A stretch of DNA of 64,000 nucleotides from Candidatus Iainarchaeum sp. (GTDB taxonomy: Archaea; B1Sed10-29; WALL01): contig JAGMCR010000002.1 in NCBI GenBank assembly GCA_023129115.1, positions 64,001 to 128,000 on the forward strand, read 5' to 3'. A model generated the notes under the pieces. The model worked only from the letters and a program-made list of their open reading frames with translations. It was not told where the DNA came from and searched no databases. This document shows positions 9,786 to 27,681 of the stretch, in pieces. Both the position numbers and the translations under genes were made by a program. The stretch's first letter is position 1, and each line of letters begins with the position of its first letter.

Positions 9786-10298
9786 ATGGCTATGCCCAAA
9801 ACACCCGAGGAAAAGCTTGGTGGGATAAACCACCACGAGTTCAAGCATTTTGCGGACGAGATTGTCCGCCCCAAGGCACCACTCGAGCAAAAGCTGCTCT
9901 CGTTGGCAATGCACGTCCAGAAAAAAATGCGGTACGACAACAAAAGCATTGAAGTGCCGTTGATTTCCGCGTACGGCCACTGGGGCGTGGGCGACTGCTT
10001 CCAGCAGGCCGGGGCACTCGTCGGCCTGCTCCGCTCGCAAGGAATAACCGCCGAGCTCACGGAAAACCCAAAAAGCGGGCACGCCAGCGTTGGAGTCCCG
10101 CACGAGAGCGGCAACGTCACAATCAACTACTACAAGGACAACGAAATCGGCATCCGCACCCCAGAGCTGTCGTGGAGGAGGACCAAGCACGGCAACGTAA
10201 CCGTCAGGAAGCGGGGAGAAACAAAAGAAATCCTTTCTGTCGAGAGCAGCCACCCACTCGACCAATTACTAAAAAAATTCTTCGGGGCGAAACAGTGA
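9786..10298 (+). CDS. transglutaminase-like protein
   Basis: GVGDCFQQAGALVGLLRSQGI and GHA motifs. Confidence 0.7.
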   Translation: MAMPKTPEEKLGGINHHEFKHFADEIVRPKAPLEQKLLSLAMHVQKKMRYDNKSIEVPLISAYGHWGVGDCFQQAGALVGLLRSQGITAELTENPKSGHASVGVPHESGNVTINYYKDNEIGIRTPELSWRRTKHGNVTVRKRGETKEILSVESSHPLDQLLKKFFGAKQ

Positions 10299-10871: not shown

Positions 10872-10944
10872 GCCTCGGTAGCTCAGCCGGTAGAGCGGCA
10901 GTCTCGTAAACTGCAGGTCGGGGGTTCAATTCCCTCCCGAGGCT
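10872..10944 (+). tRNA. tRNA-Thr(CGT); anchor of the cassette array
   Basis: Full cloverleaf: acceptor GCCTCGG/CCGAGGC, D-stem GCTC/GAGC, anticodon stem GCAGT/ACTGC with loop CTCGTAA, TTCAATT T-loop. Confidence 0.97.
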
Positions 10945-11060
10945 CTGACCCTACGGTAGTAGAGCCTGCACCATAAAATTGTTGATGATTGCCTATAACG
11001 CTTTCGTTGCAGCCCTAACTCCTTGAATTTCCTAGGAAATCCGCGGAAACTGGAGGACGC

Positions 11061-11279
11061 TTAATAGAATTCTTCTTTTGGCTTTCCAGTCTGCTTGATT
11101 ATGTGCTTTATCACAAAAACAGTTATGGTTGTGTGGTGCGGCACTCACGTTGTCAACACTTTTTTCTTTGACACTTGTTTCTTGTAAGTGATGTGCTTGC
11201 TGGACCTGGCTTTCTTGAGGCCATTGTCCTTGAGTATGCCCTCGACCTTACGCCTTGACAGCTGGCGAAGCCCTGCCAT
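11061..11279 (-). pseudogene. hicA: HicA-like toxin with in-frame TGA
   Basis: Manual translation MAGLRQLSRRKVEGILKDNG...SSKHITY...LTT*VPHH...IIKQTG. Confidence 0.7.
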
Positions 11280-11345
11280 GATGGGCAACCTCCGGCAAAG
11301 AAATGGGTATGCTACTCAATGAAACAGAAACCGACATCATTGTTT

Positions 11346-11525
11346 TTAGGGTGTGGGCTTGGGTGTGTCCGGGTCTTTCATATACTCGTTAACCAATTCC
11401 GCCATATTTTCCTTTACCTCTTTCTCGGTTTTTCCTTGTGTGGCCACGTCAAGAACAGGGCAAGAAGCCACAAACCACTTATCCTCTTTAGTAACGATTA
11501 TTGGTAAAGGAATAGCTTGTTTCAC
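11346..11525 (-). CDS. hicB: HicB-like antitoxin (59 aa, possibly truncated by frameshift)
   Basis: Manual translation ...KEDKWFVASCPVLDVATQGKTEKEVKENM. Confidence 0.75.
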   Translation of the reverse strand: MKQAIPLPIIVTKEDKWFVASCPVLDVATQGKTEKEVKENMAELVNEYMKDPDTPKPTP

Positions 11526-11596
11526 TGAAAATCACCCTCTGAAATAGGTTATCAAACCCGCGCTATTTAAAAGTATCCGCAAAAAAGAGGTGCTCC

Positions 11597-12250
11597 TTGG
11601 TCCTGCCAAAGTTATTAAAGAACCCCACACAATATTCTAGCGTGCCTGGAGATATCATCCCTGAAAAGAAGACTAAGACACAAAAAGCGATTAGGGCACT
11701 CTTTGCTTTTGGTGAGAAGCAGCGGGAGCTACCTTACGTTAAGACCAGCCGTCCAGGACACTTGGTTGCGCGGAGTATGAAGCGTGCTAACGAGCTGGTT
11801 GAACAAGCAACAACTATTTGGGAAGAAACGAAGGACAAGGAACAAAGCGGCAGGATTGGGCCGTGGGGAAGTGGGTTTAAGATAATTTACCCACAGGATT
11901 CTCGCCTTAGGGGTGAAGTGTTCCATGAGCTGAAGAGGATAACCCGCGACCTGAAAAGGGCGAGTTCGCAAAAACTTTCTGAAGAAGAACTGCAGGAGGA
12001 AGCTGCGCGGCTCAAGAATTTTTATACTCGGGGAATTCCATCCGGTCGCACGCCCGAAGCCGAGGCGAAGGCAGACGCTATGCTCACAGACGAAGAGAAA
12101 GCAATCCTAGGGGAACTCGGTTTGGACGAGGACAAGTACAACGAGCACGTCCAACACCTCGCCAGCGCCCTGGAGTCTTCACACGAGGACCTTTACGAGC
12201 TGATGGTACACCTTATAAAAGAAGGAAAAGAGGTAAAGCTGCTCAAATAA
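11597..12250 (+). CDS. hypothetical protein
   Basis: 217 aa ORF, GAGGTG RBS and TTTAAAA box upstream. Confidence 0.65.
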   Translation: MVLPKLLKNPTQYSSVPGDIIPEKKTKTQKAIRALFAFGEKQRELPYVKTSRPGHLVARSMKRANELVEQATTIWEETKDKEQSGRIGPWGSGFKIIYPQDSRLRGEVFHELKRITRDLKRASSQKLSEEELQEEAARLKNFYTRGIPSGRTPEAEAKADAMLTDEEKAILGELGLDEDKYNEHVQHLASALESSHEDLYELMVHLIKEGKEVKLLK

Positions 12251-12328
12251 CTCTTTTATGTGCAGACCCTCAATATAGTGTAAAAGCCCCACCCCGTTTT
12301 TTAAAGAATCCCGCACAACATTCTAACA

Positions 12329-12796
12329 ATGGCAAGAACACCTCAATGGATCAAAAACCTGGGCGGTCACGCAGGCGAGTTATACGTCGCGGCTGAACTA
12401 TCTAAACGTGGAATACCCAATGCATTGCTCCCCGAGAACTTTTCTGACGATGATATTTTGATTGCGCAGAAAGATGGAAGTGAAATTGGCTATATCCAAG
12501 TAAAGTCCTGTCACCCAAATCGTTCCGACTCCTTCATTCTTCGCTACACTGAAGAAGAGTGGACAAAAGCAAAAAGTAACGAGTACGTGGTTTTAGTGTA
12601 CTTGGGGACTCCCGAAGAAAACGAATCCCCACGTTATTGGATAACAACAAAGAAAAAAATGGGAAAAGCATGTGTTGAACACGGGGCACACGGAACCAAA
12701 AACTGGGAACGCCGCTTTTGGATGAAGACTATGGAATCAGACTACAAAAAATGGGAGAATAATTGGGGGCTCTTTAAGAAGTACCTTCCTAAGTGA
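12329..12796 (+). CDS. PD-(D/E)XK family nuclease
   Basis: GHAGELYVAAELSKRG...DILI...IQVKS. Confidence 0.75.
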   Translation: MARTPQWIKNLGGHAGELYVAAELSKRGIPNALLPENFSDDDILIAQKDGSEIGYIQVKSCHPNRSDSFILRYTEEEWTKAKSNEYVVLVYLGTPEENESPRYWITTKKKMGKACVEHGAHGTKNWERRFWMKTMESDYKKWENNWGLFKKYLPK

Positions 12797-12820
12797 TTAA
12801 AAAAAAATGGAGAGATTCGT

Positions 12821-13453
12821 TTGAAGAAAATTAGTGTATCTGAACTGACTTTTGCGCAAATACGCGCAGCCTCCAAAGAGTTCAGAAAGCGCGAGGAGAG
12901 GGATTCAATATACAAAATCACTACAAAGCTCGTGAACGAGGCATGGGCCAAGAAAGGCAAGGGATTCACTCTCGCCGATGCCATTAGCGTGCTACTACTC
13001 GTTTGGAACCAGGGGTTCTACCGCTACGGAAGACTCAACTTCACTAAGTTCGATAAAGCTATCAAGAAGAACAAGCCACTACTGGCAAAGTTTAGGAAGC
13101 GAAAAATCGCAAGCTTCACAGCAAAGGATGAAACAACAATCAAGAAGCTATTCAACGATTTACTTGAGGCCACGTCCATCAAAACGAGGAAACAGAAGAA
13201 AAAGATGGTCAGCCCAGTCAGCGTTGCCAAAGCACTCCACATGATGGCTCCCAGATTCTTCCCGTTATGGGACGGAGCCATCGCCGTTGGATGGGGCTGT
13301 CGATTCAACCGGGACAACGCTGCTGACAAGTACCTGAAGTTCATGAGGCAAAACAAGGAACTGATGGGAAAATACAGTGGCCGCGGGCTAACCTTAAAAA
13401 TGATTGATGAATGTAGTTACGCAATATACACCGCGGGATGGTATCCACGATAG
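12821..13453 (+). CDS. hypothetical protein, possible HhH/glycosylase-like fold
   Basis: SVAKALHMMAPRFFPLWD motif; fold assignment is inference. Confidence 0.55.
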   Translation: MKKISVSELTFAQIRAASKEFRKREERDSIYKITTKLVNEAWAKKGKGFTLADAISVLLLVWNQGFYRYGRLNFTKFDKAIKKNKPLLAKFRKRKIASFTAKDETTIKKLFNDLLEATSIKTRKQKKKMVSPVSVAKALHMMAPRFFPLWDGAIAVGWGCRFNRDNAADKYLKFMRQNKELMGKYSGRGLTLKMIDECSYAIYTAGWYPR

Positions 13454-13536
13454 ACAGGTCATTTCCTAGGAACTTCCGCGGAAATGAGGTGTGTGAGGGG
13501 CAAAAACCCGTGTAGGCTCTACAGCCGTACGACTTG

Positions 13537-13552
13537 TTCCCTCCCGAGGCTC
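13537..13552 (+). repeat. att-like copy 2 of tRNA-Thr 3' end (left arm A upstream)
   Basis: TTCCCTCCCGAGGCTC exact. Confidence 0.95.
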
Positions 13553-13611
13553 TGTATCTCTGGTGCCAGAGCGCAAGCTAAATCATTCTTTTTTTTGTGC
13601 ACTTGCCTTTG

Positions 13612-14208
13612 CTAAAGCGACTTCGCGAACTTGTCCGAGGTGGTCATCTTTGCGTACAGCGGCAGTATGTCCATCATCGCGTCGTAGTTGCTGTCGGTGA
13701 AGCCGCTGGTCGCGTCCTTCAGAAGGGTCACGTTGTATCCCTTGTTGGCCGCGCGCTTAACAGTCGTTGCGATGACGTGCTCGGTGCACTGCCCGCTGAT
13801 ATATACGTGGTCGACTCCGGCCGAACGCAGTACTAAATCGAGGTCGGTTCCCTCGAAGCCGTCAGAGCCGTAGTTGATGACGATTACATCGTCTTTCTTG
13901 GGCTCGAGCTCCTTGATGACCTTGGCATCCCAGCTGCCCACCAAAGCTTTGTTCGCGTCTTTGGCTCCCTGCATGAGGGGGTAGTACTGGTTCTTGGGCA
14001 TTTCAGGATAGCCTGGTCTCCACGCGATGTTGACGAAGACGGTCAGCATCTTCTTCCTTCGGGCTGCGGAAAGCGCCTTCTTCGCCTTGGGTATTGACTT
14101 GTTCTTCTTGATTTGGGGGTACAGCATCTTGCCCCAAACGCCTTTGGGGTGGGCCACACCGTTTTGCCAGTGTAGCATTAGCAAAGCAGATTTTTTGACA
14201 TTAACCAT
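13612..14208 (-). CDS. isochorismatase/cysteine hydrolase family
   Basis: ALLML..QN, F.GTDLDLVLRSAGV...GQCTEH; catalytic residues appear partly substituted. Confidence 0.85.
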   Translation of the reverse strand: MVNVKKSALLMLHWQNGVAHPKGVWGKMLYPQIKKNKSIPKAKKALSAARRKKMLTVFVNIAWRPGYPEMPKNQYYPLMQGAKDANKALVGSWDAKVIKELEPKKDDVIVINYGSDGFEGTDLDLVLRSAGVDHVYISGQCTEHVIATTVKRAANKGYNVTLLKDATSGFTDSNYDAMMDILPLYAKMTTSDKFAKSL

Positions 14209-14259
14209 GATAATTCACCGAAAGCAAACAAGCTTCCGTGCAATAAAAACGTTTCGGTT

Positions 14260-14286
14260 GGGGTTCAATTCCCTCCCGAGGCTCCA
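14260..14286 (+). repeat. att-like copy 3 (T-arm plus acceptor strand plus CCA)
   Basis: GGGGTTCAATTCCCTCCCGAGGCTCCA; 25 nt identical to 10921-10945. Confidence 0.97.
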
Positions 14287-14359
14287 TTACTGCGTCAAGG
14301 AGCCCCTGCTCAATTCCGCACCAGTCTATAAATAGTCCTTTGAGCAGAGCCTCGGAGGC

Positions 14360-15529
14360 ATGAGGACTGACCCTTACAACACCGGCACGAAGCTAGTGAA
14401 TTGCCTTGAGCGGGTTAGGCAATCGCTTGACCTATGTAAAGCCAACAAGCGGCTGATTCTTGAGTTCCACGCCGAGGCCGTTGCCCGTGGCTTGTCGGAA
14501 AAGCGGTGCCTTAAGTACGTGAGTACTCTCCGCAACCTCGGAACCCAACTTGGAAAGCCCTTTAACAAGGCGGACAAGCACGACATCATTCGCTTGCTCT
14601 CTTGGCTTGAGTCAACCGCGTACAAGGAGTGGACGAAGCACGACTACAAAGTCATTCTGAAATCGTTTTACAAGTGGCTGAACGGTGGAGAAGAGTATCC
14701 AAAGGTTGTTTCGTGGGTAAAAACAGGGATGAAGAACGGCAACCACATGCTGCCCGAGGAATTGCTGACCGAGGAAGACGTGCGTGCTTTAGTTGAAGCG
14801 TGTACGAACCCGCGCGACAAAGCTTTTGTCCTCACGTTGTACGAGAGTGGCTGCCGAATAAGCGAGCTGCTGACGTTGCAGGTAAAGAGCGTGAGGTTTG
14901 ACGAGCACGGCTCAATCTTGCGAGTGACTGGGAAGACCGGTGACAGGCGCGTGAGGGTGATTTCCGCGGCTCCGGCAATCGCGTTGTGGCTCGACAACCA
15001 CCCCACAAGGAAAGGGCACTTGTTTTGCTCCTTGGATGGGACGGGCATCAACTACTCGACCGCTAACGTGCTGTTAAGGAGGCTTGCTAAGAAGGCAGGC
15101 ATTACGAAGCGTGTTAATCCGCACGGTTTCCGCCACGCCCGGGCCACGTCGCTCGCGAACAAGCTCACAGAAGCCCAAATGAAGGAGTTCTTTGGTTGGG
15201 CTCAAAGTAGCGAGATGGCGGCTGTGTACGTCCACTTGTTGGGGCGGGACGTGGACGATGCCCTGCTAAGCATTTACGGCGTGAAGCCACCCGAGGACGC
15301 TCGCAAGGAGCGTTTCGTGCCTAGGGCTTGTCCCAGGTGCAAGGAGACTAATTCTCCTGCTAGTAAATACTGTTGCAGGTGTGGCAGTGCGCTCGACCTC
15401 GCAACAGCGCTAGAGGCTGATGACAAGCACAAGGAAGCCGATGCATTGATGAACGAGCTCATCAAAGACGACAGGATAAAAGCGCTTCTATTGGAGCGGT
15501 TGGTTGCCATCCAAGCAGAGAATCATTAA
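14360..15529 (+). CDS. tyrosine recombinase/integrase with C-terminal zinc ribbon
   Basis: ESGCRISE (R), GKTG (K), HGFRH (HxxR), FGW, AVYVH (Y); CPRC...CCRC. Confidence 0.95.
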   Translation: MRTDPYNTGTKLVNCLERVRQSLDLCKANKRLILEFHAEAVARGLSEKRCLKYVSTLRNLGTQLGKPFNKADKHDIIRLLSWLESTAYKEWTKHDYKVILKSFYKWLNGGEEYPKVVSWVKTGMKNGNHMLPEELLTEEDVRALVEACTNPRDKAFVLTLYESGCRISELLTLQVKSVRFDEHGSILRVTGKTGDRRVRVISAAPAIALWLDNHPTRKGHLFCSLDGTGINYSTANVLLRRLAKKAGITKRVNPHGFRHARATSLANKLTEAQMKEFFGWAQSSEMAAVYVHLLGRDVDDALLSIYGVKPPEDARKERFVPRACPRCKETNSPASKYCCRCGSALDLATALEADDKHKEADALMNELIKDDRIKALLLERLVAIQAENH

Positions 15530-15990
15530 CCTTTTCGTTTGAGGTTGTTGTATATATTGAGTGGTTCAGCGCTCAAATTCTCGCGTTCCTGGCCTTGGTT
15601 CAACTGATTTTTTAGGAATTCAATAGCTGCCAAGTAGCTCATCGGGAGCGCATCAGAAGTGTTTTCTCCCCCTGTTCAGGAATCCACATTACGAAAAAAT
15701 TCGGATTTGAGAATGTTGTATTCTCTCTTGTATTAATGGGGCAGTTTTCGGTGCGGATTCTAAGGCGTTGCTAGTGATTGACCATTGTGTAATTAGGATT
15801 CTAATTATTCAGAAAGTAGGGGTTGTGTGAAGCTCGGGGGTGAATACTGACCCTGATGAGGGTTCTGCATTACGAAAAAATTGGGATTCGGAAGTTGGCC
15901 TCCTTTTAGTGATAGAAAATGGATTTGGCCTTAGTTCACGTTTAAACATAGGTTTTTATTTGAGGACTGCTTTTTTGGCTAAGGAGCGGA

Positions 15991-16665
15991 TTGCTGATGA
16001 CTGATACTTTAGTTGATGTTTTGCTGATGCCGAACATTATGGCACTATGGGTTCCAATAATCATAGCGGCCGCCTTAGTAATCCTAATGGGATTGGTTGT
16101 CCGCCACAAAAAAGTTTCTATATCTAAGTCTAAAAAATCGCCAGATAACAAAAAAGTTGCTTTCAGATCACTTGTGATTGTTGCAGTACTATCGTTGGTA
16201 TTTTTCTTTGTTGAACCCCAGATAATAAAAGGTCTCTCCACACCACTTTTAACAATCCCATTTAGTGTTGTCCCCGCTCTTCTACTCGGATTATTTTACA
16301 CTGGACTTCAATACACTCCCATAGAAATCAAATCAGACAAGAAGAAAGCGACGCTAACAGTTGATTTTATTACTATTAATCTATGCGCACTCTTCGCATT
16401 CTTGACATTGTTTAACTTCTCTCCTTATTTCCCCGGCGCGTTCACTAGCACGAGCAACATAGCAATCATTTTCATAATTGCGTTGGTACAGACTTTTTTG
16501 TTCTCGCTGATTGTGTTCGCTTCGGAAAAAGTAAAATTCATCAGACTAAAAAATTTCCTTGGGATTCCAAATTGGCTGATATGTGTTATACTCTTTATCC
16601 TGCCTTGGTTGTTTTTGATGTATGAAAAAGCTATCCCAGTGGTGGGTGGCCTCAGGACCCTATAA
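15991..16665 (+). CDS. multi-pass membrane protein
   Basis: About 6 hydrophobic segments; start uncertain. Confidence 0.7.
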   Translation: MLMTDTLVDVLLMPNIMALWVPIIIAAALVILMGLVVRHKKVSISKSKKSPDNKKVAFRSLVIVAVLSLVFFFVEPQIIKGLSTPLLTIPFSVVPALLLGLFYTGLQYTPIEIKSDKKKATLTVDFITINLCALFAFLTLFNFSPYFPGAFTSTSNIAIIFIIALVQTFLFSLIVFASEKVKFIRLKNFLGIPNWLICVILFILPWLFLMYEKAIPVVGGLRTL

Positions 16666-16756
16666 TCAAAAATGCCTAAATCGGCATTTGTTTAAACGTT
16701 TGGACGATATGTATTTATTCTGCAAGCGCTTTTTGTTTGAGTCGGGGTGTTCTTCA

Positions 16757-19570
16757 ATGAAGCGAATGTTAGATGCATCTAAGGGCTCAGTTATAGTGGT
16801 GGTTTTTATCCTACTCTTAATTGTTGGGGTTTATGCGTTTGCTCCGTGTCCTGTTTCTCCACCAGTAAACGAAGGTGACCCACTGCCAATACCTTGCTTT
16901 GAAGAAGGTATGTGCATGGGTGGTTGTTGCTGCTATGATGGTTATCTTCTTCTCGAAAGGAATACTACTGAAGAACAGCCCAGCGCGATTACAGGTATGA
17001 TGGTAGCAACCGCACCTTTAGAAGGCAATGCAATTGAGCCCCACAAAGTGGTTAGTTTGGTTGGTTTTGAAGGCTATGACAAGAATAGGGACAAGGTTGC
17101 GGATTCCATGCAGAACGGTGTTTACTTAGAGGGCGCTACAAAAGAACTATTCACTGTTGCTTTTGACCACAAACCAACAGAAGAAGACAAAAAACTGGTT
17201 AGAGATATGGGTGGGGAGGTTGTTTACGATTTCTCATTGATTTACGCTTTAACAGTTAGGATACAACCAACCAAAATAACTGAGTATGCAGCAGCCAATC
17301 CACATGTAGTTATCGTGAGTGACCCCCGTGTAACTAGATCACTGAAGATATACCGCACAGCAAAAGTAGTTCGTGTTCGACCTCTAGTTTGGGAAACCTA
17401 TGGCTACAATGGTAGCGGGGAAGTAGTCACAGTAATGGATAGTGGCGTAGATGACTCCCACGCAGATTTACAAGGCAAAATAAAAAACTGGATGGACTGC
17501 AATCCTGCAGGATGCACTACTATTGGTCAGACACTGCATGACAACGTGGGCCATGGAACGAGTATTGCGGGGATTATTGTGGGGTCTGGGACGCAGGTGG
17601 GTGGTTCTAGTGGAGTAGCCACAGTGAACATTATGATTCATAGCCGGTTTACGGGCGAAGGCGGAGAAGTATGGGGTGGCTATTTTTCAGTGGATACTGA
17701 TGATAACACCCATTCCATTGACGGAACCCTTAATTGGGAGGCGGCTGACGGGCAGGACAATTACACAATAAAAGTAACCAACTCTACAGGGCTACCAAAC
17801 GGTGTTATTGGGGACGAAACTTCCGATTCAGACCCCTTAACCTTAACCACCAACTCATTCACAGAAACCAGTGAAATCCAGTACAAGTTTTACGTTAGCG
17901 CAGAGAGTGGCAATGCACATAACAGCACTGATGAAGCCTATTTCGCGCAAATGAGTACACCTATTGAATCGGTGGGGGATAGTTATAACCTCATGAGGGG
18001 ACTGGCACCAGGTAGCGAGCTTGTTTCCGTGAAAGTTGTGCCAGATGATAATGACATAGCTCATTTATGGACTATGAATAATGCCTATGATTGGATTGGG
18101 TCTAATTCTGAATCAGATGGCGTTAAAGTGGTTTCCATTAGTTTGGGTGGGACAACCGCTGACCCTATTGAATCAAAAGTCATTAGTAACACGATAGACA
18201 AAGGGGTTCTGCCCGTTGCAGCAACAGGTAATGATAACGGTGTTATCGACTACCCTGCTAGGTATCCTGAAGTGCTTGCTGTGGGGGCGATTGACAGCGA
18301 TGGAGACGTGGCGGATTACAGTAATTACGGGAACTCAAGTGAAGGCTCTGAAAAATGGCCCGATGTTGTTGCTCCCGGTGGGTCAAGCTGGTTCACTTAT
18401 GAAAAATACCCTGTTTTAACACTCGACACAAACGACGCTGAGTGTGTGACGAACACAGGCCTAACTACATGCGAAAGTTTCTCTGAAGAATACACTAATG
18501 ACTCCATCTATGCGTACGGTACTTCCATGGCTGTCCCCCACGTATCCGCGATAGCTGCCTTGATTGCTGAGGCGAAGGGGAGTTGGACTTACAACTCTTC
18601 TACTGACCCGTTGTGGGTAAAAATGGTTATTTCGATGACGGCTTGGGAGACCAACGAAACCAACCGTGGTTCTAAAGACATCTATGAAGGCTATGGAGTA
18701 GTCGCTGCCGACGCGGCAATCGAAGCGGTTATCTTCAACCACACGCTTGGGGACATTGAGTCAGATACTTTTGGCTCGGGATTGACTGACAAGAAGGTGT
18801 GGGCCCGCGAAGTTTCGCCGGGAGACAAGGAAATTGATTTCACGCTGGTGGTGCCAAGCGGCGCGGACTACGACCTCTACCTTTACAACAATACTCCTGA
18901 CCAGTACGGCCAGCCACAGATACTGGACAATTCGACAACTGCTGCGACCGGCGGCACAGAAAGCATTACCTACAACTTTTCGGCGAGTCAGGAAGCGTAT
19001 TTGGTGGTGAAGTGGGTCAGCGGTAACGGAGCATTTACTTTGTCTAGTGTGGAAGACAAGGACAAAATGAGTTTGATTCAGGGTTGGAACCAGTTTTCGT
19101 TCCCGAAGCTTCCGGCGAACAAGACTGTGGCCAACGTGTTCTCTTCAATTAGTGGTAGTTATGACCGGATAGATGATTACATCGCTAACAACAAGTCGTG
19201 GCGGATTTACGACGTAGCTGCAATTGGCTATTCCATGACGTTAAGCAACATTGAGGGGGGCAGGTCTTATCGCATTCATATGAACCAGGCCGACACAATT
19301 GAGTTCAGCGGCACGGACGTGGCGCCAATCAATATCTCGCTTTATGAGGGCTGGAATTGGCTCGCTTGGCCAGGCGAGACGGAGGCAATCGCCAGTGCGT
19401 TGAGCTCAATCGACGGGAGCTACAACAGAATAGATGAACTCTACGCTGGGGAGTGGGAAATTTATGATAGCTCCATCCCCGATGAGTACGACCAATCCCT
19501 GGACTACATGAAAAGAGGCAGAGGGTACGTAATTCTCATGAACTCTAACGACACACTCGAGGTGAATTAG
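16757..19570 (+). CDS. secreted S8 subtilisin-like serine protease
   Basis: VMDSG, HGT, GTSMA catalytic triad; N-terminal signal; C-terminal L..GWN repeats. Confidence 0.92.
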   Translation: MKRMLDASKGSVIVVVFILLLIVGVYAFAPCPVSPPVNEGDPLPIPCFEEGMCMGGCCCYDGYLLLERNTTEEQPSAITGMMVATAPLEGNAIEPHKVVSLVGFEGYDKNRDKVADSMQNGVYLEGATKELFTVAFDHKPTEEDKKLVRDMGGEVVYDFSLIYALTVRIQPTKITEYAAANPHVVIVSDPRVTRSLKIYRTAKVVRVRPLVWETYGYNGSGEVVTVMDSGVDDSHADLQGKIKNWMDCNPAGCTTIGQTLHDNVGHGTSIAGIIVGSGTQVGGSSGVATVNIMIHSRFTGEGGEVWGGYFSVDTDDNTHSIDGTLNWEAADGQDNYTIKVTNSTGLPNGVIGDETSDSDPLTLTTNSFTETSEIQYKFYVSAESGNAHNSTDEAYFAQMSTPIESVGDSYNLMRGLAPGSELVSVKVVPDDNDIAHLWTMNNAYDWIGSNSESDGVKVVSISLGGTTADPIESKVISNTIDKGVLPVAATGNDNGVIDYPARYPEVLAVGAIDSDGDVADYSNYGNSSEGSEKWPDVVAPGGSSWFTYEKYPVLTLDTNDAECVTNTGLTTCESFSEEYTNDSIYAYGTSMAVPHVSAIAALIAEAKGSWTYNSSTDPLWVKMVISMTAWETNETNRGSKDIYEGYGVVAADAAIEAVIFNHTLGDIESDTFGSGLTDKKVWAREVSPGDKEIDFTLVVPSGADYDLYLYNNTPDQYGQPQILDNSTTAATGGTESITYNFSASQEAYLVVKWVSGNGAFTLSSVEDKDKMSLIQGWNQFSFPKLPANKTVANVFSSISGSYDRIDDYIANNKSWRIYDVAAIGYSMTLSNIEGGRSYRIHMNQADTIEFSGTDVAPINISLYEGWNWLAWPGETEAIASALSSIDGSYNRIDELYAGEWEIYDSSIPDEYDQSLDYMKRGRGYVILMNSNDTLEVN

Positions 19571-19597
19571 AGGGGGATACTTGACCTGGTCAAGCTG

Positions 19598-19611
19598 TCC
19601 TCCCGGGGCTC
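19598..19611 (+). repeat. att-like copy 4 (left arm B, right arm A)
   Basis: TCCTCCCGGGGCTC followed by the same 28 nt that follow the tRNA. Confidence 0.92.
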
Positions 19612-19690
19612 TGACCCTACGGTAGTAGAGCCTGCACCAAACTATTTATAGAACTTTGAGCAGAAGCCCTTGCGATGGGCAGGATAAACC

Positions 19691-20260
19691 TCATTCAAAA
19701 TGGTGTTTATGCTTTTCGAGTTTTTTCATGCGTTTCTTGTTTAGGTGAATTGTTTCTTTGGTTGCGCGGCTTTGGCGCTCGACTTCGAACGCGGTTATTC
19801 CAAGGTCGTGGGCCTCACACGCTGTTTTGATTGCACTGGCTGCTTGGACTATGTCTTCTCTTCGTGTTGACGGGTTTTGTTTTTTGTCTTCATTAAGTAT
19901 ATCAATTGCGAGGTCAATTGTTTTGTTTGGCAGCCCTAACCTCTTGCCTTGTTTTTGGATGATTTCTTGGGGAGTTGGAGTAGCTATGCCCGTAGCCTTG
20001 CGGAAGTCCTCGATGTCTTCTAGGCTTAGATTAATGGAGTTATCGGCGGCTCTGAAGTTGTACCTGCCAATTTCCATCCCCTGGTTTTGGCCCGCAACCC
20101 AACTTATTAAGCTCGCTTTTTTCACTGGCTCCGCATTGTACGCAATAACCTCTTTTTTCTTCCTGAGCCTCTCGACTTCTTTTACGAGTGCATCTTCTGC
20201 CTCGCCGGGAAAAACACGCAGCCGCCTTACTTTTTCCAAGATTTGGTCCATTTTAGACAT
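19691..20260 (-). CDS. hypothetical protein with TFB cyclin-repeat-like C-terminus
   Basis: LGLPNKTIDLAIDIL...AASAIKTAC...ITAFEV...TKETI. Confidence 0.55.
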   Translation of the reverse strand: MSKMDQILEKVRRLRVFPGEAEDALVKEVERLRKKKEVIAYNAEPVKKASLISWVAGQNQGMEIGRYNFRAADNSINLSLEDIEDFRKATGIATPTPQEIIQKQGKRLGLPNKTIDLAIDILNEDKKQNPSTRREDIVQAASAIKTACEAHDLGITAFEVERQSRATKETIHLNKKRMKKLEKHKHHFE

Positions 20261-20322
20261 AACAACAAATGACTCAGTTCTAAAATAAAAACCTTTTTAT
20301 CCCTCTTAGAGTTATGTGCAAA

Positions 20323-20495
20323 GCCGTGGGCTAACCTTAAAAATGGTTGATGAGTGTAGTTACGCAGTATACACCGCGGGATGGTATCCATGATAGACAG
20401 GTCATTTCCTAGGAAGTTCCGCGGAAATGAGGTGTGTGAGGGGCAAAAAGCGGTGCAGGCTCTATAGCCGTACGAGCTGTTCCCTCCCGAGGCTC
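20323..20495 (+). repeat. ~170 bp duplicate of 13380-13552, including att copy 5 (20480-20495)
   Basis: Near-identical on direct comparison. Confidence 0.95.
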
Positions 20496-20661
20496 AGCGT
20501 CCTGGGGGGCGCAGCCCCCCACGAAGCCCATGACGTTGACACAAGTCAACGTCCAGTCCACGGGAAGAGTCCCCTCAGTAATACTGTACTAGCTGCTGCC
20601 GGGCGGCCTTGCGCCGCCCTCGTCTAACGTGCCGCCTGAGTTTCAGGCGCTCCCGAGGCTC
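20496..20661 (+). mobile_element. gene-free hairpin mini-cassette C1 with att copy 6 (20650-20661)
   Basis: AGCGTCCTGGGGGGCGCAGCCCCCC ... CTAACGTGCCGCCTGAGTTTCAGGCG CTCCCGAGGCTC. Confidence 0.75.
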
Positions 20662-20843
20662 AGCGTCCTGGGGGGCGCAGCCCCCCACTACCCCGGGAAG
20701 CGCCCCCCCAGGTGAGTGGGTAAGAGCTCGCTTCCGCTCGCGGTTTTTGTCTCTGGGAATCGCAGATTCCCAAGCCTAACGTGCTGTACCGTGAATCCCA
20801 ACGGATTTGCGGTTGTCCTGAGTTTCAGGCGCTCCCGAGGCTC
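20662..20843 (+). mobile_element. gene-free hairpin mini-cassette C2 with att copy 7 (20832-20843)
   Basis: Same head and tail as C1, different middle. Confidence 0.75.
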
Positions 20844-21101
20844 TGACCCTACGGTAGCAGAGCCCGCTTCACCCCAAGCATGAGGCCGGACTTGCGCATA
20901 AGCTTCCTAGGGGTTTGTGGGGTTTGGGCCAATAAATTTATCAGGTTGTGGCATTCCTCGCTGAAGTATTGTCCCGCTGTCACTAAAAAACCCGTCCATT
21001 CCCTACAATAACGCTTAAAATATTGCCGTGGGGCGCATTCAGTCACGTTTATAAACTATAACATGTTAGATATATCGGTACCGATATTAAAAGGTTTTGT
21101 T

Positions 21102-21599
21102 ATGAACTTGTTTGCTAGGGGCTTGCTGAAAATTTATGTCTTGTACATGGCCAAACAGGGTTCCATTTCAGGCAGTGATGTTGCCAAGAGCATAAGCGCT
21201 GCCACAGACGGGCGGTGGAAGCCGAGCTTTGGCTCGATTTACCCGCTGCTGGGGAGGTTTGAGGAAGATGGCCTGCTGTGCCAGGAGGCTAGGAAGGGAA
21301 AGCAGGTCTTTTACTCACTCACCAAGAAGGGTGTGAAAGAGTTCGAGAGGCAGAGGGAAAAATACATTGCCGAGTACGAGGACAACCTCGGGACGCTGTT
21401 CCCCCTGGTCTTCCAGCTGGCGCAGTTCGAGGCCGACAAAGAGCTGCAAGACGCCGTCACGAACCTGAACCAAGTGTTCGCGAAATACAAGAAATACTTG
21501 TTCAACCTGGAGCTAAACGAAAAAGTGGAGAAAAGAAAGCGCATAATCAAGGACTTGTCCGCCACCCTTTCGGACCACATGAGCAAGCTGGAGAAGTGA
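21102..21599 (+). CDS. PadR family transcriptional regulator
   Basis: PSFGSIYPLLGRFEEDGL...YSLTKKG. Confidence 0.9.
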   Translation: MNLFARGLLKIYVLYMAKQGSISGSDVAKSISAATDGRWKPSFGSIYPLLGRFEEDGLLCQEARKGKQVFYSLTKKGVKEFERQREKYIAEYEDNLGTLFPLVFQLAQFEADKELQDAVTNLNQVFAKYKKYLFNLELNEKVEKRKRIIKDLSATLSDHMSKLEK

Positions 21600-21603
21600 T
21601 GTT

Positions 21604-22926
21604 ATGGAAAAATACGACGCAATTGTTGTGGGGTGTGGCATAAGCGGGCTGCTCGCGGGCCTTGCGCTTGCCAAGGAAGGAAAGAGTGTGCTAATGCTCG
21701 AGAAGGAAGACAAAGTTGGTGGCGCGTGCAGGTCTTACGACGTTGACGGCTTCGTGGTCGACACCGGGCCGCATGTGATTACTGGGCGGGGGAATGGGCC
21801 AACCCAATTGCTGATAGACAAGTATTTTGACGTGGTGCCGAAGTTCATTGAGAGCAGAAAATATTTCCTGCGGTTTGACGGCAAGTTATACGCTTTCCCT
21901 TGGACGATTCCGGCTTGGCTATCGTTCCCACCGTTCTCAGTCGAAGACAGGCTCATCATTGTCCAGGTGATGTTCAAGTTGTTGGCAGACTATGCCTCTG
22001 GCAAAGGCTTGGGGGATAAAGTGGTGTCTGATTACACGGCGGGCCATGAGCTCTCGGGAAGGGCGCTGCAGTTCATTGATTGCATGTGCCTGTTTTTGAC
22101 GGGCGTTTGCATGGAGGAAACGCCCGTGAGCCGAATCCTTTCCGGGGGAAGGAGCAAAAACAAGACAAAAGCGGAAAAAATAAAAGAGATTTTGGTTGAA
22201 AACGGGAAGACCCATTACTATCCGCGTGGGGGGATCCAAACTATTGTTAACTCTGTATTGCAGTCCCTCCCGAAGAACGCCGGGATTCACAAGAGCGAAG
22301 AAGCAACCAAAATCGTGGTCAGTGGCGGGCGTGTTTCTGGTGTCGCCACGGACAAAGGCGAGTACGCCACGAAGGTAGTGGTTTACGCTGGACCGAACAA
22401 GCTCCTTCCCGGCTTGGTGGAACTGCCCCAAGAGTACATCCAAAAATTCAGGGGCTTGAAGCAAGCGAGGACGCTGACGCTGTGGCTCGGGCTAAATAAA
22501 AAATACTTCGCAGAAGTTGGGACAGAGCTTTGGACCGAAACAAAAAAGCCTTGCTGGGCCGTCCCAACATCCAATTTTGATTCTGCACTCGCCCCGACGG
22601 GGAAGCACTTGGTGGGCTTCGGCTTCGTGCTCGCGGAAGATGAGCAGGTGACCGACGACAACATTGACGACTATGTCAAAGTAGTCGAGGAAGTGTTCCC
22701 GGGCATAAGGGAACACATCGAGATGACCCATTACCAAGTGCTGGTTGCCGAGCAGGCAGCCAACGCAAAAGACAATTTCTTCAGCGGGGTCAAGCTGCCG
22801 GTCGATGGGCTGTACGCGGTCGGCACTGACGTCGACAGGCGGAGCATGGGCGTGACGAGGGCCGCGTACTCCGTAGTCTCGTTGATTGAAGCCCTAAAAC
22901 AAGGCGGTTTTGTTACGAAGGTGTGA
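21604..22926 (+). CDS. FAD-dependent oxidoreductase, phytoene desaturase-like superfamily
   Basis: VVGCGISGL, GGACRS, FVVDTGPH, YPRGG. Confidence 0.85.
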   Translation: MEKYDAIVVGCGISGLLAGLALAKEGKSVLMLEKEDKVGGACRSYDVDGFVVDTGPHVITGRGNGPTQLLIDKYFDVVPKFIESRKYFLRFDGKLYAFPWTIPAWLSFPPFSVEDRLIIVQVMFKLLADYASGKGLGDKVVSDYTAGHELSGRALQFIDCMCLFLTGVCMEETPVSRILSGGRSKNKTKAEKIKEILVENGKTHYYPRGGIQTIVNSVLQSLPKNAGIHKSEEATKIVVSGGRVSGVATDKGEYATKVVVYAGPNKLLPGLVELPQEYIQKFRGLKQARTLTLWLGLNKKYFAEVGTELWTETKKPCWAVPTSNFDSALAPTGKHLVGFGFVLAEDEQVTDDNIDDYVKVVEEVFPGIREHIEMTHYQVLVAEQAANAKDNFFSGVKLPVDGLYAVGTDVDRRSMGVTRAAYSVVSLIEALKQGGFVTKV

Positions 22927-22930
22927 AAAA

Positions 22931-24028
22931 ATGAAGTACAAAAAAATAGTTTTCCCGCGGGACGGTGCCGCCCATGACAACGTTATTGAGTGGTGGTACT
23001 TTAACGGGCACCTGAAGGACGGGAATGGCAATGGGTATGCCTTCATGGACTGCCTGTTCAAGGCAAAGCCCAAAGAAGTGAAACTTCCTTTTTTGAAAAA
23101 GATTCCACTCAAAAACGCTTATTTCGCCCACTCCCTTTTGTCTGACATCAAGGACAACGTGTTTTATTCAAGCGTGCAGCCCCTGAGCATACTCTCGAGG
23201 GACAGCTTTTCAAAGCCCTTGTTTTTCGTGAATTACTCCCACCCCTCTTTGGGCGGCTACCTGAATTACGAAATCGAGGAGATTGACGGGTTCAAGTATA
23301 GAATCAAGTCCGAGTTCTTTGACTTGACCTTGAGCTCGACCAAGAAGCCGCTGCTTGAGGGCGGGCGCGGGTTCATTGACTTGAATTCAAAGCAAACGTT
23401 TTACTACTCGCTGACAAACCTCGAGACAGAGGGATACGTCACTGTCAACGGCAAGCGAATCAAGGTAAAAGGCAAGTCCTGGATGGACCACCAGTGGGCC
23501 GACGTCCCGTACTCGAAGGACAAGTGGAGCTGGTTTTCAATCCAATTGGACAACAACACGGAAATGGTTTGCTTTGAGTATGGCGACAAGAAAAAGAAGA
23601 CTTATCTCGCGAGCATTTCGTACGCGAACGGAAGGGTCGCCCACGCCAGTGACTTATCACTAACCCCATTAGGCCAGGTATGGGAGAGCAAGAGAACTGG
23701 CGCCAAGTATCCCCTTTCATGGAGGATTCAAGTCCCGTCAAAAAGAATTGACCTCGTGGTGAGCCCCTTAATGAAAGAACAGGAAATAATTTTTGGGCCA
23801 ATCAACTACTGGGAGGGGCCGTTAAAAGTAACGGGAAAAGTGAACAACAAAAAAGTGGCTGGAAAAGGATTTTCAGAGCTTGTCGGCTACCCGACAACAA
23901 AGTCTTTTGTTGAGTTTTATGAGCCAGAACTAAGGAAAATCGAGAAAATAGTTAAAAGAGACTTAAGCGAATGGGTGGGTCATACGATTAGTGGAAAGCC
24001 GGGGTTTGCCGCGGATCGCAGGAAGTGA
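22931..24028 (+). CDS. CrtC/AttH lipocalin-like protein
   Basis: EWWYFNGHL, YYS, WMDHQW, WSWFSIQL, YWEG. Confidence 0.85.
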   Translation: MKYKKIVFPRDGAAHDNVIEWWYFNGHLKDGNGNGYAFMDCLFKAKPKEVKLPFLKKIPLKNAYFAHSLLSDIKDNVFYSSVQPLSILSRDSFSKPLFFVNYSHPSLGGYLNYEIEEIDGFKYRIKSEFFDLTLSSTKKPLLEGGRGFIDLNSKQTFYYSLTNLETEGYVTVNGKRIKVKGKSWMDHQWADVPYSKDKWSWFSIQLDNNTEMVCFEYGDKKKKTYLASISYANGRVAHASDLSLTPLGQVWESKRTGAKYPLSWRIQVPSKRIDLVVSPLMKEQEIIFGPINYWEGPLKVTGKVNNKKVAGKGFSELVGYPTTKSFVEFYEPELRKIEKIVKRDLSEWVGHTISGKPGFAADRRK

Positions 24029-24034
24029 GGTTGT

Positions 24035-24868
24035 TTGGGCTTTGGTGGTTTCTTGCTTCACTTGCGGCCGCTGTCGTGGCCACTTGTCGCACTGCAAGTC
24101 TTGACGGGGTTCGTGCTCGCCGGCGGCAACACTGTCTCTCTTGAGGTCTTGTTAGGTTTCTTTGTCATCGTTGTCTGTATGAACGGGGGAACACTGGCGT
24201 TCAACTCTTACTTCGACAGGGACGGTGGAAATGTGGGGTGGCTGGACAACCCACCCAAAACAACTAAGCAAACATATTACTTGTCGCTCGCGCTGATGGT
24301 ATTTGGTGTGCTCGCCGCCTTGCTGGTGTCCCATGAATTTTTCTATTTGGCTTCCGCATCTTTCGTTGTTAGCGTTGCTTATTCACATCCTTGGTTCAGG
24401 CTCAAGTCGGTGCCACTGGCAGACGCCATTTGTAGTGGCGTGGGTTACGGGGTGCTCATGTTTCTTGGGGGTTGGGTACTCGCGTCACCAGTCTTGACTG
24501 CCAAGGCCGGGGTCGTGTGCGTGGGAATGTTCCTGGCGTTCATGGCTGGGGTTCCATTGACCCAAATATATCAAATGCGTGAAGACAAAAAGAGGGGTGA
24601 TAGGACCACTGCATTGGCCTTGGGACCGGACAAATCAAAGTGGATGTTTTACTTCTTTGGCACGCTTTCTGTAGCCGTGTTGTTGTTTGCTGTTATGGAG
24701 GGGTTCTTGGGGAAACTTGCGCTACTGGCGGGCGTGCCTTTATTCTGGCTGGCGTTACAAGTACGGAACATCAAATCATTCAAGCACAAGCAAAAAGTTT
24801 ATGAGGCATACGTCGTGGTTGTTGTTGTGGATGTGGTTATCATTCTTTCAGAACTCGTTCCAGTGTAA
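24035..24868 (+). CDS. UbiA family prenyltransferase
   Basis: NSYFDRD, YSHP.RLK, EDKKRGDRT; many TM helices. Confidence 0.85.
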   Translation: MGFGGFLLHLRPLSWPLVALQVLTGFVLAGGNTVSLEVLLGFFVIVVCMNGGTLAFNSYFDRDGGNVGWLDNPPKTTKQTYYLSLALMVFGVLAALLVSHEFFYLASASFVVSVAYSHPWFRLKSVPLADAICSGVGYGVLMFLGGWVLASPVLTAKAGVVCVGMFLAFMAGVPLTQIYQMREDKKRGDRTTALALGPDKSKWMFYFFGTLSVAVLLFAVMEGFLGKLALLAGVPLFWLALQVRNIKSFKHKQKVYEAYVVVVVVDVVIILSELVPV

Positions 24869-24952
24869 CACACCCCCTTTCCGCGGAAGCTTCCCCGGAA
24901 ATGACTTGGGTGTGGCTGATTTTGGGCGCAGGCTCTAGAGCCATACGAGCTG

Positions 24953-24967
24953 TTCTCCCCCGAGCTC
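24953..24967 (+). repeat. degenerate att copy 8 (left arm A upstream)
   Basis: GCAGGCTCTAGAGCCATACGAGCTG then TTCTCCCCCGAGCTC. Confidence 0.8.
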
Positions 24968-26078: not shown

Positions 26079-26130
26079 TTCCGGGGGAGGTGGGCAACGC
26101 AAAGCTTAAATATTAGAAATGCGTACTATA

Positions 26131-26243
26131 GGGCGCTGTAGGTTTGAGAGGTTGTGAACCGCAAGGCTTGCAACGAATTATGTCCCGAAAGTGGCATAAG
26201 GGCCGTGTAGAAAATAGCTCTTAAACCTGTAGCACTTCAGCGC
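26131..26243 (+). ncRNA. candidate structured small RNA
   Basis: TATA-like CTTAAATA ~25 nt upstream, long closing stem, GCAA and GAAA tetraloop hairpins, T-rich tail. Confidence 0.55.
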
Positions 26244-26334
26244 TTTCTGTTGTTTCAACTGTGTATGGACCTTAGTTCTCACGCTTCATTTCCGCGGAAC
26301 TTCCTAGCCGCAGGATTTATAGCCGTACGAGCTG

Positions 26335-26350
26335 TTCCCTCCCGAGGCTC
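26335..26350 (+). repeat. att copy 10 (left arm A, right arm B)
   Basis: TTCCCTCCCGAGGCTC exact. Confidence 0.95.
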
Positions 26351-26462
26351 TCAGACCACGTCAAGGAGCCCCCGCTCAATTCCGCACCGGTTTACATGCC
26401 TGTTTATAAAGGTTTACGATATATCGTACACCTTTATATAATAGTTCAAACACCGATTAAGC

Positions 26463-27653
26463 ATGGAGCTAGGACTCTGGAAGGTTGTGGAGCAATGGAA
26501 TTACTGGAAGGAAAAGCCAGAAACCGGTATTCCCAGGGACGTGACCGCAGAGGCAATGGAGTTCTTTAAAGGCAGCGAAGCGCTTTATTTTTTTGGCCCG
26601 CGGCGAGCCGGGAAAACATTTGTTTGCATGCAGCTGCTGTCAAAGCTGTCAAAGAAGCACGGGAAGAAATCTTGCTTGTACGTGAACTTTGAGGAGCCTG
26701 CTCTTGCCGGGAACCTGCGCACGGAATTCATAGAAGAAATCGTTGTAGAATTCAAAAAAGTGCATGGGAAGTGGCCTCGCTTCGTTTTCCTTGACGAAGT
26801 CCAGAACGTTAAAGGCTGGGAGCGCTGGGTCCGCGGAGCAGTGGACAGGAAACGGTTCAAGGTTTTTGTCACTGGATCTTCTGCGAAACTCTTGAGTTCA
26901 GAGTTCTCCACTTCTCTTGGGGGGAGGGGGATAGGCTTTCTGGTATTGCCGTTTTCCTTTAGCGAGTTTAGGCGTGCAAAACCAAAAGCGGGGCTCAAGG
27001 AGTACCTTGAGATTGGGGGCTATCCAGCGGTTGTACTGGAAAAAAACGAGCGCAAGCGCAGGAGGATGCTGGAAGAGTATTTTGACACTGCCATCATGAG
27101 GGATATAGTGGCTAGGCACGACGTGAGAGACGTGCCAACATTAAGAACGCTTGCCGTTTACTTACTGACAAATTCTGGAAAGCGCTTCAGCTACAATAAG
27201 CTTCGGGCAATGACACATCTCTCTTTTGACGCGCTTAGGCAGTACCTGTCATATCTTGAGGACGCATTAGTGGTTTTCCAAGTACCGTATTTTTCGTACT
27301 CCATGAAAAAAGCGCTTGAAAAGCCCCGCAAGTACTATGCTTATGACCTTGGGCTGCAGGGAGCTGTATCAAAGTCGTTTAGTCCGGACTGGGGAAGAAA
27401 AGCCGAGAACGCGGTTGCAATAGAGCTGGTTCGGCGAAGAAAAGAAATTCAATACTACTCAAACAAGTTTGAAGTCGATTTCATAATAAAAGAAGGAACA
27501 AAGATAAAGCCGGTAAATGTCTGCTACTCAGAGAAACCACCGCAAAGGGAAACAAAAAGCCTTGAAGAGTTTTCCAAAAAACACAAGTCAGAACCCCCTC
27601 TGTTGCTTTGCGGGAAGGATAACATCTTGAAGTGGCTGAAAACAAACCAATGA
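26463..27653 (+). CDS. AAA_14/DUF4143 ATPase
   Basis: GPRRAGKT, FLDEVQ, VTGSS, GGYP, EVDF. Confidence 0.92.
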   Translation: MELGLWKVVEQWNYWKEKPETGIPRDVTAEAMEFFKGSEALYFFGPRRAGKTFVCMQLLSKLSKKHGKKSCLYVNFEEPALAGNLRTEFIEEIVVEFKKVHGKWPRFVFLDEVQNVKGWERWVRGAVDRKRFKVFVTGSSAKLLSSEFSTSLGGRGIGFLVLPFSFSEFRRAKPKAGLKEYLEIGGYPAVVLEKNERKRRRMLEEYFDTAIMRDIVARHDVRDVPTLRTLAVYLLTNSGKRFSYNKLRAMTHLSFDALRQYLSYLEDALVVFQVPYFSYSMKKALEKPRKYYAYDLGLQGAVSKSFSPDWGRKAENAVAIELVRRRKEIQYYSNKFEVDFIIKEGTKIKPVNVCYSEKPPQRETKSLEEFSKKHKSEPPLLLCGKDNILKWLKTNQ

Positions 27654-27681
27654 AAAAATGCTCCTTGACGTGGCCAAGCCG

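Follow-up and report, generated by a model that had tools for sequence, protein, structure and literature searches.

How does an archaeon with a very small genome take up genes at a tRNA locus, and what are the short inverted sequences that bound several of the acquired pieces? The question is raised by a 64,000-nt stretch of DNA of Candidatus Iainarchaeum sp. (assembly GCA_023129115.1, contig JAGMCR010000002.1, positions 64,001 to 128,000 of the forward strand), hereafter called the window. Here a tRNA gene is followed by a series of short modules that are separated by copies of the tRNA 3' end (the core), and three of these modules start and end with the two halves of one inverted repeat, which we call right arm A and left arm A. 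The source assembly is that of a Candidatus Iainarchaeum-like DPANN archaeon (1.25 Mb in 19 contigs, 88.6% complete) with relatives of 0.3-1.3 Mb; DPANN genomes are tiny and their gene gain is poorly known. On balance we lean towards the explanation that the family A arms are the working P and P' flanks of an attachment site (attP) belonging to cassettes that lack an integrase gene, and that they are bound as duplex DNA. Coordinates refer to the window, and features lie on the + strand unless stated otherwise.

The anchor of the array is an intact tRNA-Thr(CGU) gene at 10872-10945 (found with ARAGORN, 70.7 bits with the Rfam tRNA model), which is the sole tRNA gene in the window. A search with Rfam over 9000-43000, at E-values up to 1, yields nothing but this tRNA and one sub-threshold match on the opposite strand. 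The attachment (att) core is formed by the last 13-16 nt of the gene (13-nt form CCTCCCGAGGCTC), and 18 + strand copies are present between 10933 and 40110. For the 15-nt version, allowing up to 3 mismatches, 19 matches are obtained against 2.12 expected (0 out of 100 shuffles reach 19). These direct copies divide the ~30-kb stretch downstream of the tRNA into at least 17 modules of 0.17-5.3 kb each. The last clear core is found at 39056-39068 (preceded by an arm of a second type, left arm B) and a weaker core-like copy at 40098-40110, after which the flank that is conserved with a genome of the same genus (G002) resumes at ~40923. At this locus G002 has retained the tRNA with its upstream genes, as well as DUF1003 and AlkD, but the interior consists of 5.4 kb of different DNA without core repeats, against ~30 kb here (no clean empty site was found in G002). 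Given these kept flanks around a different interior, together with a GC content of 0.38-0.54 inside against 0.55-0.64 in the flanks, the stretch can be regarded as a variable island. As is typical for an element integrating at a tRNA, the inserted DNA lies between directly repeated copies of the tRNA 3' end, the tRNA itself is intact and a tyrosine recombinase catalytic domain (PF00589) is present. The best explanation is that successive rounds of site-specific recombination at the tRNA-Thr(CGU) 3' end have built up the island.

The arms were searched on both strands of the window using a 19-nt right-arm pattern taken from an earlier sequence-only reading of this DNA, allowing up to 3 mismatches. 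Six matches are obtained (at 10952, 19618, 20850 and 28861 on the + strand, and at 13511 and 20454 on the - strand) against 0.03 expected, and 0 out of 100 shuffles reach six. A repeat finder (family D3) adds left arms at 24925, 26307, 34373 and 35171. This bears out two claims of that reading: right arm A follows four core copies, where the modules starting at 10946, 19612, 20844 and (as a variant) 28855 begin, and its near reverse complement, left arm A, precedes six. If all 21-mers that match the right arm at 15 or more out of 21 positions are collected from both strands of the window, 8 others are found, all of which are arms.

Also as had been claimed, modules 10946-13552 (M1), 19612-20495 (M4) and 20844-24967 (M7) have the right arm at their start and the left arm at their end. 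The ungapped complementarity over 21 nt amounts to 17/21 for M1 (right arm 10952-10972, left arm 13509-13529, core 13540-13552), 18/21 for M4 (19618-19638 and 20452-20472) and 13/21 for M7, in which the right arm has diverged (20850-20870; left arm 24925-24945) and the final core is degenerate (24955-24967). The central 3 nt of the two arms are never paired. Right arm A starts 6 nt past the 13-nt core, while left arm A ends 10 nt before it, a distance that shrinks to 7 nt when the shared TTC is assigned to the core; on the latter count, the near-symmetric spacing (7 vs 6 nt) that had been proposed for the excised junction holds. Left arm A is palindromic in itself (GGCTCT/AGAGCC) with a half-site equal to the last core bases plus one, and right arm A carries the inverted half-site 14 nt past the core end. 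The right arms at 10946 and 19612 show identity across 29 nt.

Conservation at the left end extends well beyond the arm. Family A left ends share ~100 nt, consisting of a palindromic block, a GTGTG run, a variable spacer, the arm, a conserved 10-nt spacer and the core. In M7 the distal palindromic block (of the TTTCCGCGGAA type) is located at 24870-24910, as supported by repeat family D11, the alignment and a genome scan; more copies are found near 13460-13483, 20403-20426, 26287-26299, 32078-32090, 32875-32887 and 34266-34278. We aligned 11 family A left ends from this genome (G000) and from two genomes of other genera (G003 and G004). In this alignment the arm is conserved, as is the distal palindrome; the intervening stretch varies in both sequence and length, and the cargo differs. 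In the genome scan the left-arm palindrome is confined to these arrays, i.e. the window contig (C12) and one locus on contig C13.

The working-flank explanation is favoured because the arms are conserved as discrete motifs next to unrelated cargo in three genera, are restricted to the arrays and have analogues around independent cores (see below). In such a scheme P' would be the tRNA-proximal and P the distal end of a module, and recombination between the two bounding cores would join P, core and P' into an attP. Its 21-nt inverted arms would then lie 7-10 nt and 6 nt from the core, with the palindromic block ~40 nt out on the P side. Strand exchange would have to take place inside the shared core, since different right arms (A, C, D and E) follow the same 11-13 nt and the junctions have nothing else in common. 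The arms would serve as duplex protein-binding sites for integrase subunits or an accessory factor and so shape the attP complex; the likely catalyst would be the XerA-like tyrosine integrase of the third module (M3), or a relative, acting in trans. We infer the excision as circles, the identity of the arm binder and the preference for duplex over folded DNA. Should the arms prove to be functional in recombination, they would establish a cassette format together with an attP design of short core and inverted arms, and this design would then be common to a wide archaeal integrase clade, from Iainarchaeia to Methanococcoides and pleolipoviruses.

The integrase gene (14360-15529, 389 aa) begins 76 nt past a core and contains the sole PF00589 match of the assembly (5.2e-24, 85.4 bits against a cut-off of 27.1). 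Its best solved relatives are of the XerA type (PDB 4a8e at 7.9e-14 and 5hxy at 1.1e-13), and an extra, zinc-ribbon-like tail is seen at the C-terminus (PF12773, E 0.0029). A copy with 85% identity is present in one relative (G005), in an element likewise ending in left arm B and a core, whereas G002, G003 and G004 (three of the five close relatives) yield no match to PF00589. The integrase is therefore not a housekeeping gene. A role as XerA dimer resolvase was rejected on the same absence and on the score for the best NCBIfam family, XerA_Arch (NF040815), which at 131.1 bits stays under the cut-off of 220. Iainarchaeia of the G002, G003 and G004 type may thus lack a XerA-type dimer resolvase (G004 is 98% complete). 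Homologues were collected from 38 loci in metagenome-assembled genomes of Micrarchaeota, Aenigmatarchaeota, Undinarchaeota, Archaeoglobi, Thermococci and Methanococcoides; at 7 of the 38, a tRNA on the same strand ends at most ~330 nt upstream. Among viruses, the closest relatives are encoded by two pleolipovirus proviruses, GacPV1 (39% identity) and ThalV2 (36%), with alignments that span 81-82% of the protein.

Two observations concern the surroundings of this gene. The integrase promoter region (14272-14359) lies between a core and a near-perfect inverted core copy abutting the ATG. A 7-bp inverted repeat is nested inside this region and encloses a TATA-like box, and G005 holds a matching intact arrangement. 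In module 35215-39068 a remnant of the integrase 5' end (leader and first codons) is present at 37412-37523, which is 95% identical to 14308-14419.

A comparable arrangement is found in a number of other elements. A module from a genome of another family within the same order (G009) contains an inverted repeat of 14 nt with 1 mismatch (1 out of 1000 shuffles reaches its score) and the same distal palindrome, yet has a different, T-arm-like palindromic arm on both module sides. A Methanococcoides element of 10.5 kb, situated at tRNA-Thr(CGU), has an inverted repeat of 16 bp without mismatch at 27 and 34 nt from a 15-nt core, and in an Aenigmatarchaeota element at tRNA-Asp an inverted repeat of 15 nt with 1 mismatch lies 3-5 nt from a 16-nt core. 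In the ThalV2 provirus an inverted repeat of 14 nt (1 mismatch) surrounds the position at which the record was opened; for GacPV1 the ends give just 7 perfect bases, and a third element of which both ends were located (L061) has no inverted repeat. The integrases of the Methanococcoides element and ThalV2 are 36-42% identical to the one in the window. Judging from these sequences, a short tRNA-derived core between inverted arms appears to be a recurrent, though not universal, trait of the integrase clade. An attP made of paired protein sites, one of the two options offered by the sequence-only reading, gains support from this recurrence around short tRNA cores in unrelated elements of one integrase clade and from the left ends that are conserved with varied cargo in three genera. 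For reference, the ends of the Methanococcoides element are at 9886-9960 and 20390-20460 of locus L055, and those of ThalV2 are in locus L127 (BK065158.1).

To what extent do arm types belong together on a module? Each of the 17 x 17 combinations was given a score for the best local complementarity of the 45 nt that follow the first core with the 45 nt that precede the last core. The sum of inverted-repeat scores on the diagonal is 119, compared to 100.4 +/- 6.8 in permutations, and as only 158 out of 20000 permutations reach this value, arm types co-occur on modules above chance. Outside family A, right arm C is present on 3 modules and left arm B ends 4 of the 17; B is the end type of every one of the three C modules (hypergeometric p = 0.006). 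The two are mutual inverted repeats, and module 26351-27695 has a 13-bp perfect inverted repeat. For family A itself, with the right arm on 4 modules, the left arm ending 6 of 17 and both on 3, the hypergeometric p is ~0.10, which is weak alone. At the C13 locus right arm A stands at the start and left arm A at the end, with a core inside. The AbiE unit of G004 is flanked by right arm A and left arm A as well (17/19 complementary); its interpretation as a clean A/A module was rejected, since the alignment shows a composite with a decayed inner junction.

Several observations weigh against paired, working arms. No inverted repeat is seen in ~11 of the 17 modules, nor in any of the three modules of a second G004 array. 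Three modules carry left arm A without right arm A: a 271-bp module at 26080-26350 (left arm and core at 26307-26350), the AbiE-bearing module that ends in a diverged left arm and degenerate core at 34373-34415, and the module ending in left arm and core at 35171-35214, after which right arm C of module 35215-39068 follows. Module 28855-30972 is mismatched, with a variant right arm A (28861-28881) and left arm B (30941-30959). There is no module-specific covariation between paired arms, given that the complementarity across modules (up to 18/21) equals the values within modules. Because arms A differ in sequence from the C/B arms of the integrase's own module, one integrase cannot read both by sequence, unless it recognizes the core or a shape only, and G004 (98% complete) has family A ends without any PF00589 match. 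The outer right arm, as we read the sequence, seems to run into a motif resembling a transcription factor B recognition element and TATA box (BRE/TATA-like) that is also found after other arm types.

The distribution of the arms points in the same direction. Family A arms are found in 3 genomes of one family only. Searches of IMG/VR with the right arm plus core end and with the left arm plus core give 0 matches each, and the pattern of core plus right arm gives 0 matches in JGI metagenomes. A looser 21-nt arm pattern gives 38 matches in JGI metagenomes, none with an adjacent forward core; these were taken as chance, including one (L076) of which the weak reverse-core match was judged spurious. 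Finally, three runs of one cold-seep study contain the stretch (word shares 0.98, 0.58 and 0.30) and are stored as assembled contigs. These contigs end at cores and arms and hence give no usable circle or deletion junction; the joints listed in them have sides of 20-56 letters, in repeated sequence and off the module boundaries. No excised circle was seen. The claim that each module is a discrete integrated circle is supported in part only: the inverted arms and their above-chance co-occurrence agree with it, but the modules without a repeat, the mismatched module, the lack of compensatory changes and the weak statistic for family A do not.

When the junctions are aligned and attP is rebuilt in silico, a check that was proposed along with the sequence-only reading, an inverted repeat indeed flanks the core. 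The other option offered there, an attC-like site, would have the arms pair within one strand, such that the integrase recognizes a folded shape and could move cassettes with differing arms. The arm sequences of family A, C/B, the G009 type, Methanococcoides, Aenigmatarchaeota and ThalV2 are wholly different, and still inverted repeats flank the core in all of them, which speaks for a folded site, as does the presence of a single integrase beside several arm families. Folding of the rebuilt junctions is likewise in agreement for M1 (-14.5 kcal/mol, z -3.2), M4 (-20.6, z -4.1) and module 26351-27695 (-20.9, z -5.1), but for M7 (z -0.4) and 35215-39068 (z 0.1) shuffled sequences fold just as well. 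Moreover, the shared core, where exchange must occur, is predicted to lie in a ~29-nt loop and not in a duplex, compensatory arm changes are absent while the 3-nt central mismatch is constant, and the arm sequence is conserved within family A across three genera. A single-stranded stage is conceivable because the closest viral integrases belong to proviruses encoding a rolling-circle Rep (according to the parts of PMC10919331 used here). Pyrococcus XerA, moreover, is described as binding stem-looped att structures with an affinity below that for dif (in the sections of PMC8371274 that were available). Against the folded site, no replication or Rep gene was found in the modules. Taken together we consider the attC-like site rather improbable. 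Equally doubtful is the broader scenario of a tRNA-anchored, integron-like gene capture in DPANN, where one XerA-like integrase would move many recombinase-less cassettes by recognizing shape, possibly of folded single-stranded DNA. If true it would constitute an archaeal functional analogue of attC recombination and explain how arm families of unrelated sequence come together in a single array with a single integrase. A tRNA-like interpretation of the rebuilt junction, with the outer arm ends as acceptor stem followed by CCA, was rejected as the fold is one long hairpin without cloverleaf; it is further weakened by the CCA-containing motif preceding TATA-like boxes in other arm families too.

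Signs of decay raise the question of whether the arms have any present role. They might be fossils of repeated integration by one parent family whose interiors were deleted or replaced, in which case the island is an ordinary though extreme example of tandem accretion. Decayed junctions and arms (32924-32940, 34373-34415 and 20850-20870), the integrase 5' fragment at 37412-37523, the M1 gene remnant held in the M4 end and the presence of arms without integrase in G004 all fit this idea. Nevertheless we judge it unlikely, since conservation across the three genera follows motifs (arm and distal palindrome kept, spacer variable) instead of being uniform, the right arms of M1 and M4 show no difference across 29 nt, and the modules were found to hold no plasmid or virus hallmark gene that defines a parent element. 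A role in expression, with the palindromic left end as terminator or insulator, the right arm as part of a promoter or operator and the complementarity of the ends as coincidence, would account for the TATA-like boxes after the right arms at 19612, 14285 and 40111 and at the G004 junction, for the integrase promoter region between a core and its inverted copy, and for the palindromes of left arm and distal block downstream of + strand genes. The arms, though, keep one orientation relative to the array also in modules with cargo on the - strand, such as 19612-20495 and 28855-30972, and hairpins are not needed for archaeal termination; as neither the end complementarity nor the same design at att cores of unrelated elements is explained, we think this very unlikely. 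Scarcely credible, finally, is a casposon-like transposon with the arms as terminal inverted repeats and the cores as target-site duplications. Three modules are admittedly bounded by inverted repeats and a 13-16-nt direct repeat beside a tRNA, but the arms lie 6-10 nt from the direct repeat behind conserved spacers rather than abutting it, the first 'duplication' is a functional tRNA end, and Pfam reveals no transposase or Cas1 among 31 open reading frames (ORFs) while a tyrosine integrase is present. Membership of that class was rejected on these grounds.

How does the array relate to systems already described? Integrons are ordered arrays of small recombinase-less cassettes with imperfect inverted-repeat attC sites that are split at the crossover and are homogeneous within a host lineage. 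Here we also observe an ordered array of small cassettes without recombinase genes, and each of the three A modules has a split imperfect inverted repeat. On the other hand, the array starts at a tRNA, the integrase resides in the third module and not at the array head, the crossover would be at the tRNA 3' end with the core unpaired in the predicted fold, and the cassettes appear to have their own promoters. An assignment to integrons was rejected: the integrase scores far below the cut-offs of the integron-integrase models (TIGR02249, 46.8 vs 265 bits; NF011946, 37.4 vs 435), no integrase with attI was found at the array head, and no attC with its crossover in paired repeats. The archaeal XerA/dif system provides the best structural and family matches for the catalytic and core-binding domains of the integrase (4a8e, 5hxy, NF040815), but the dif layout (two 11-nt arms, 6-nt spacer) is not that of the sites here, and the integrase has its extra C-terminal tail.

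Closer parallels are found among tRNA-integrated elements. The consulted parts of a review on archaeal tyrosine recombinases mention that elements can integrate in tandem at a single locus and that integrase genes can be lost (PMC8371274); the tandem elements described there resemble this island in having a non-partitioned tyrosine integrase and a tRNA 3' end core duplicated as direct repeats. The present island differs in its number of modules (at least 17, mostly tiny at 0.17-5.3 kb) for one integrase, in a core of just 13-16 nt and in a module family with ~100-nt conserved ends, inverted arms and varied cargo. Tandem accretion at a tRNA, which the island resembles in the way it works, is thus already known in archaea, as far as that source covers it. 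Tycheposon islands of Prochlorococcus (bioRxiv 10.1101/2020.12.28.424599, in the parts available) are alike with respect to the streamlined genome, growth beside tRNA genes by successive integrations, partial tRNA copies between elements, remnants of degraded elements and adaptive or defence cargo. What defines them, however, is a common set of modules for integration (integrase) and replication, and those parts do not describe inverted-repeat arms; the host here is archaeal, no replication genes were found, and the assignment was rejected because Pfam, PADLOC and PHROGs reveal no replication gene of the kind that belongs to the hallmark modules. The Archaeoglobi proviruses GacPV1 (BK065156.1) and ThalV2 similarly have the integrase at an att boundary, but according to the portion of PMC10919331 used they are complete single proviruses of 13-16 kb with structural and Rep genes, not cassette arrays. 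For SNJ2-type elements conserved P and P' arms have been reported, in a paper from which the term 'inverted repeat' is absent. Our searches of main texts in an open-access library gave no paper on tRNA-anchored DPANN cassette arrays or an inverted-arm attP for this clade.

The cargo of the modules is diverse. M1 carries three ORFs without assigned function. The second module (M2, 13553-14284) has an isochorismatase-family gene on the - strand, is without family A arms and ends in a tRNA-like T-arm remnant plus core. M3 (14285-19611) starts with right arm C and ends with a palindromic left arm B (19580-19598); besides the integrase it encodes one unknown ORF and an S8 subtilase. The cargo of M4 is on the - strand, as is that of module 28855-30972, which contains an S9 peptidase gene. 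M7 holds genes for a PadR regulator, an amine-oxidase/CrtD-like protein, a CrtC-like hydratase and a UbiA prenyltransferase; finding PadR and three carotenoid-type enzymes in one cassette (21063-24868) is unexpected for a DPANN genome this small. Further downstream a coreless left arm A remnant (32924-32940) marks a decayed junction upstream of a cassette with AbiEi and AbiEii. Other island cargo includes a weak TFIIB-like ORF, a DUF7118 protein, a PDC-S01-type AAA ATPase and a protein of the endonuclease/exonuclease/phosphatase family. Replication, structural or transposase genes were not found in any module, and Pfam, PADLOC and PHROGs in particular gave no primase, helicase, polymerase or Rep.

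The ends of M1 and M4 share a direct repeat of 173 nt with 93% identity (13380-13552 and 20323-20495), which takes in the last 22 codons of the M1 gene 12821-13453. Because this shared end holds the remnant of an M1 gene, M4 looks derived from an M1-like cassette in which the cargo was replaced. The C13 locus (C13:141287-143619, - strand) is a second mini-array, which lacks a tRNA. It opens with a degenerate T-arm and core, continues with right arm A and an internal core, and closes with left arm A and a diverged core. Its first module has a left end that corresponds to that of a G004 module whose right flank differs. A minor pattern concerns the core end: an inverted copy 12-14 nt downstream follows right arms A, C and D (9 window junctions have a 5-8-nt copy) and is also seen at 2 of 7 external loci; each case, in the window or outside, is weak alone (2-340 out of 1000 shuffles reach it).

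Between M4 and M7 the array contains two mini-modules without ORFs (20496-20661 and 20662-20843), which are copies of a genome-wide repeat. With these copies taken out, the end of M4 would meet the start of M7 and bring left arm A, core and right arm A together in sequence, an arrangement of which no intact example is present in the window. The flanks of type E (at 20496, 20662, 27696 and 28641) and F (before 20649, 20831 and 28842) were rejected as att arms, both being the ends of this one dispersed repeat with 43 loci in the genome. It is ~110-215 nt long and hairpin-rich, with a GC-rich start and an end reading ACGTGCC...CTGAGTTTCAG; copies are found at 20496-20661, 20662-20843 and 28641-28854, and elsewhere for instance at C4:7051-7221 and C14:11338-11533. 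It has no Rfam match in the searched part of the window. As many as 19 of the 43 loci are within 400 nt of a tRNA, and some start 0-10 nt past the tRNA 3' end, as they do at the core here. The repeat may be a miniature element targeting tRNA flanks or a co-transcribed RNA. At the far end of the island, between the last core copies, a gene for the C-terminal subunit of GMP synthase (39110-40045) is present, which is missing from the corresponding interval in G002 and has a paralogue with 45% identity on contig C13.

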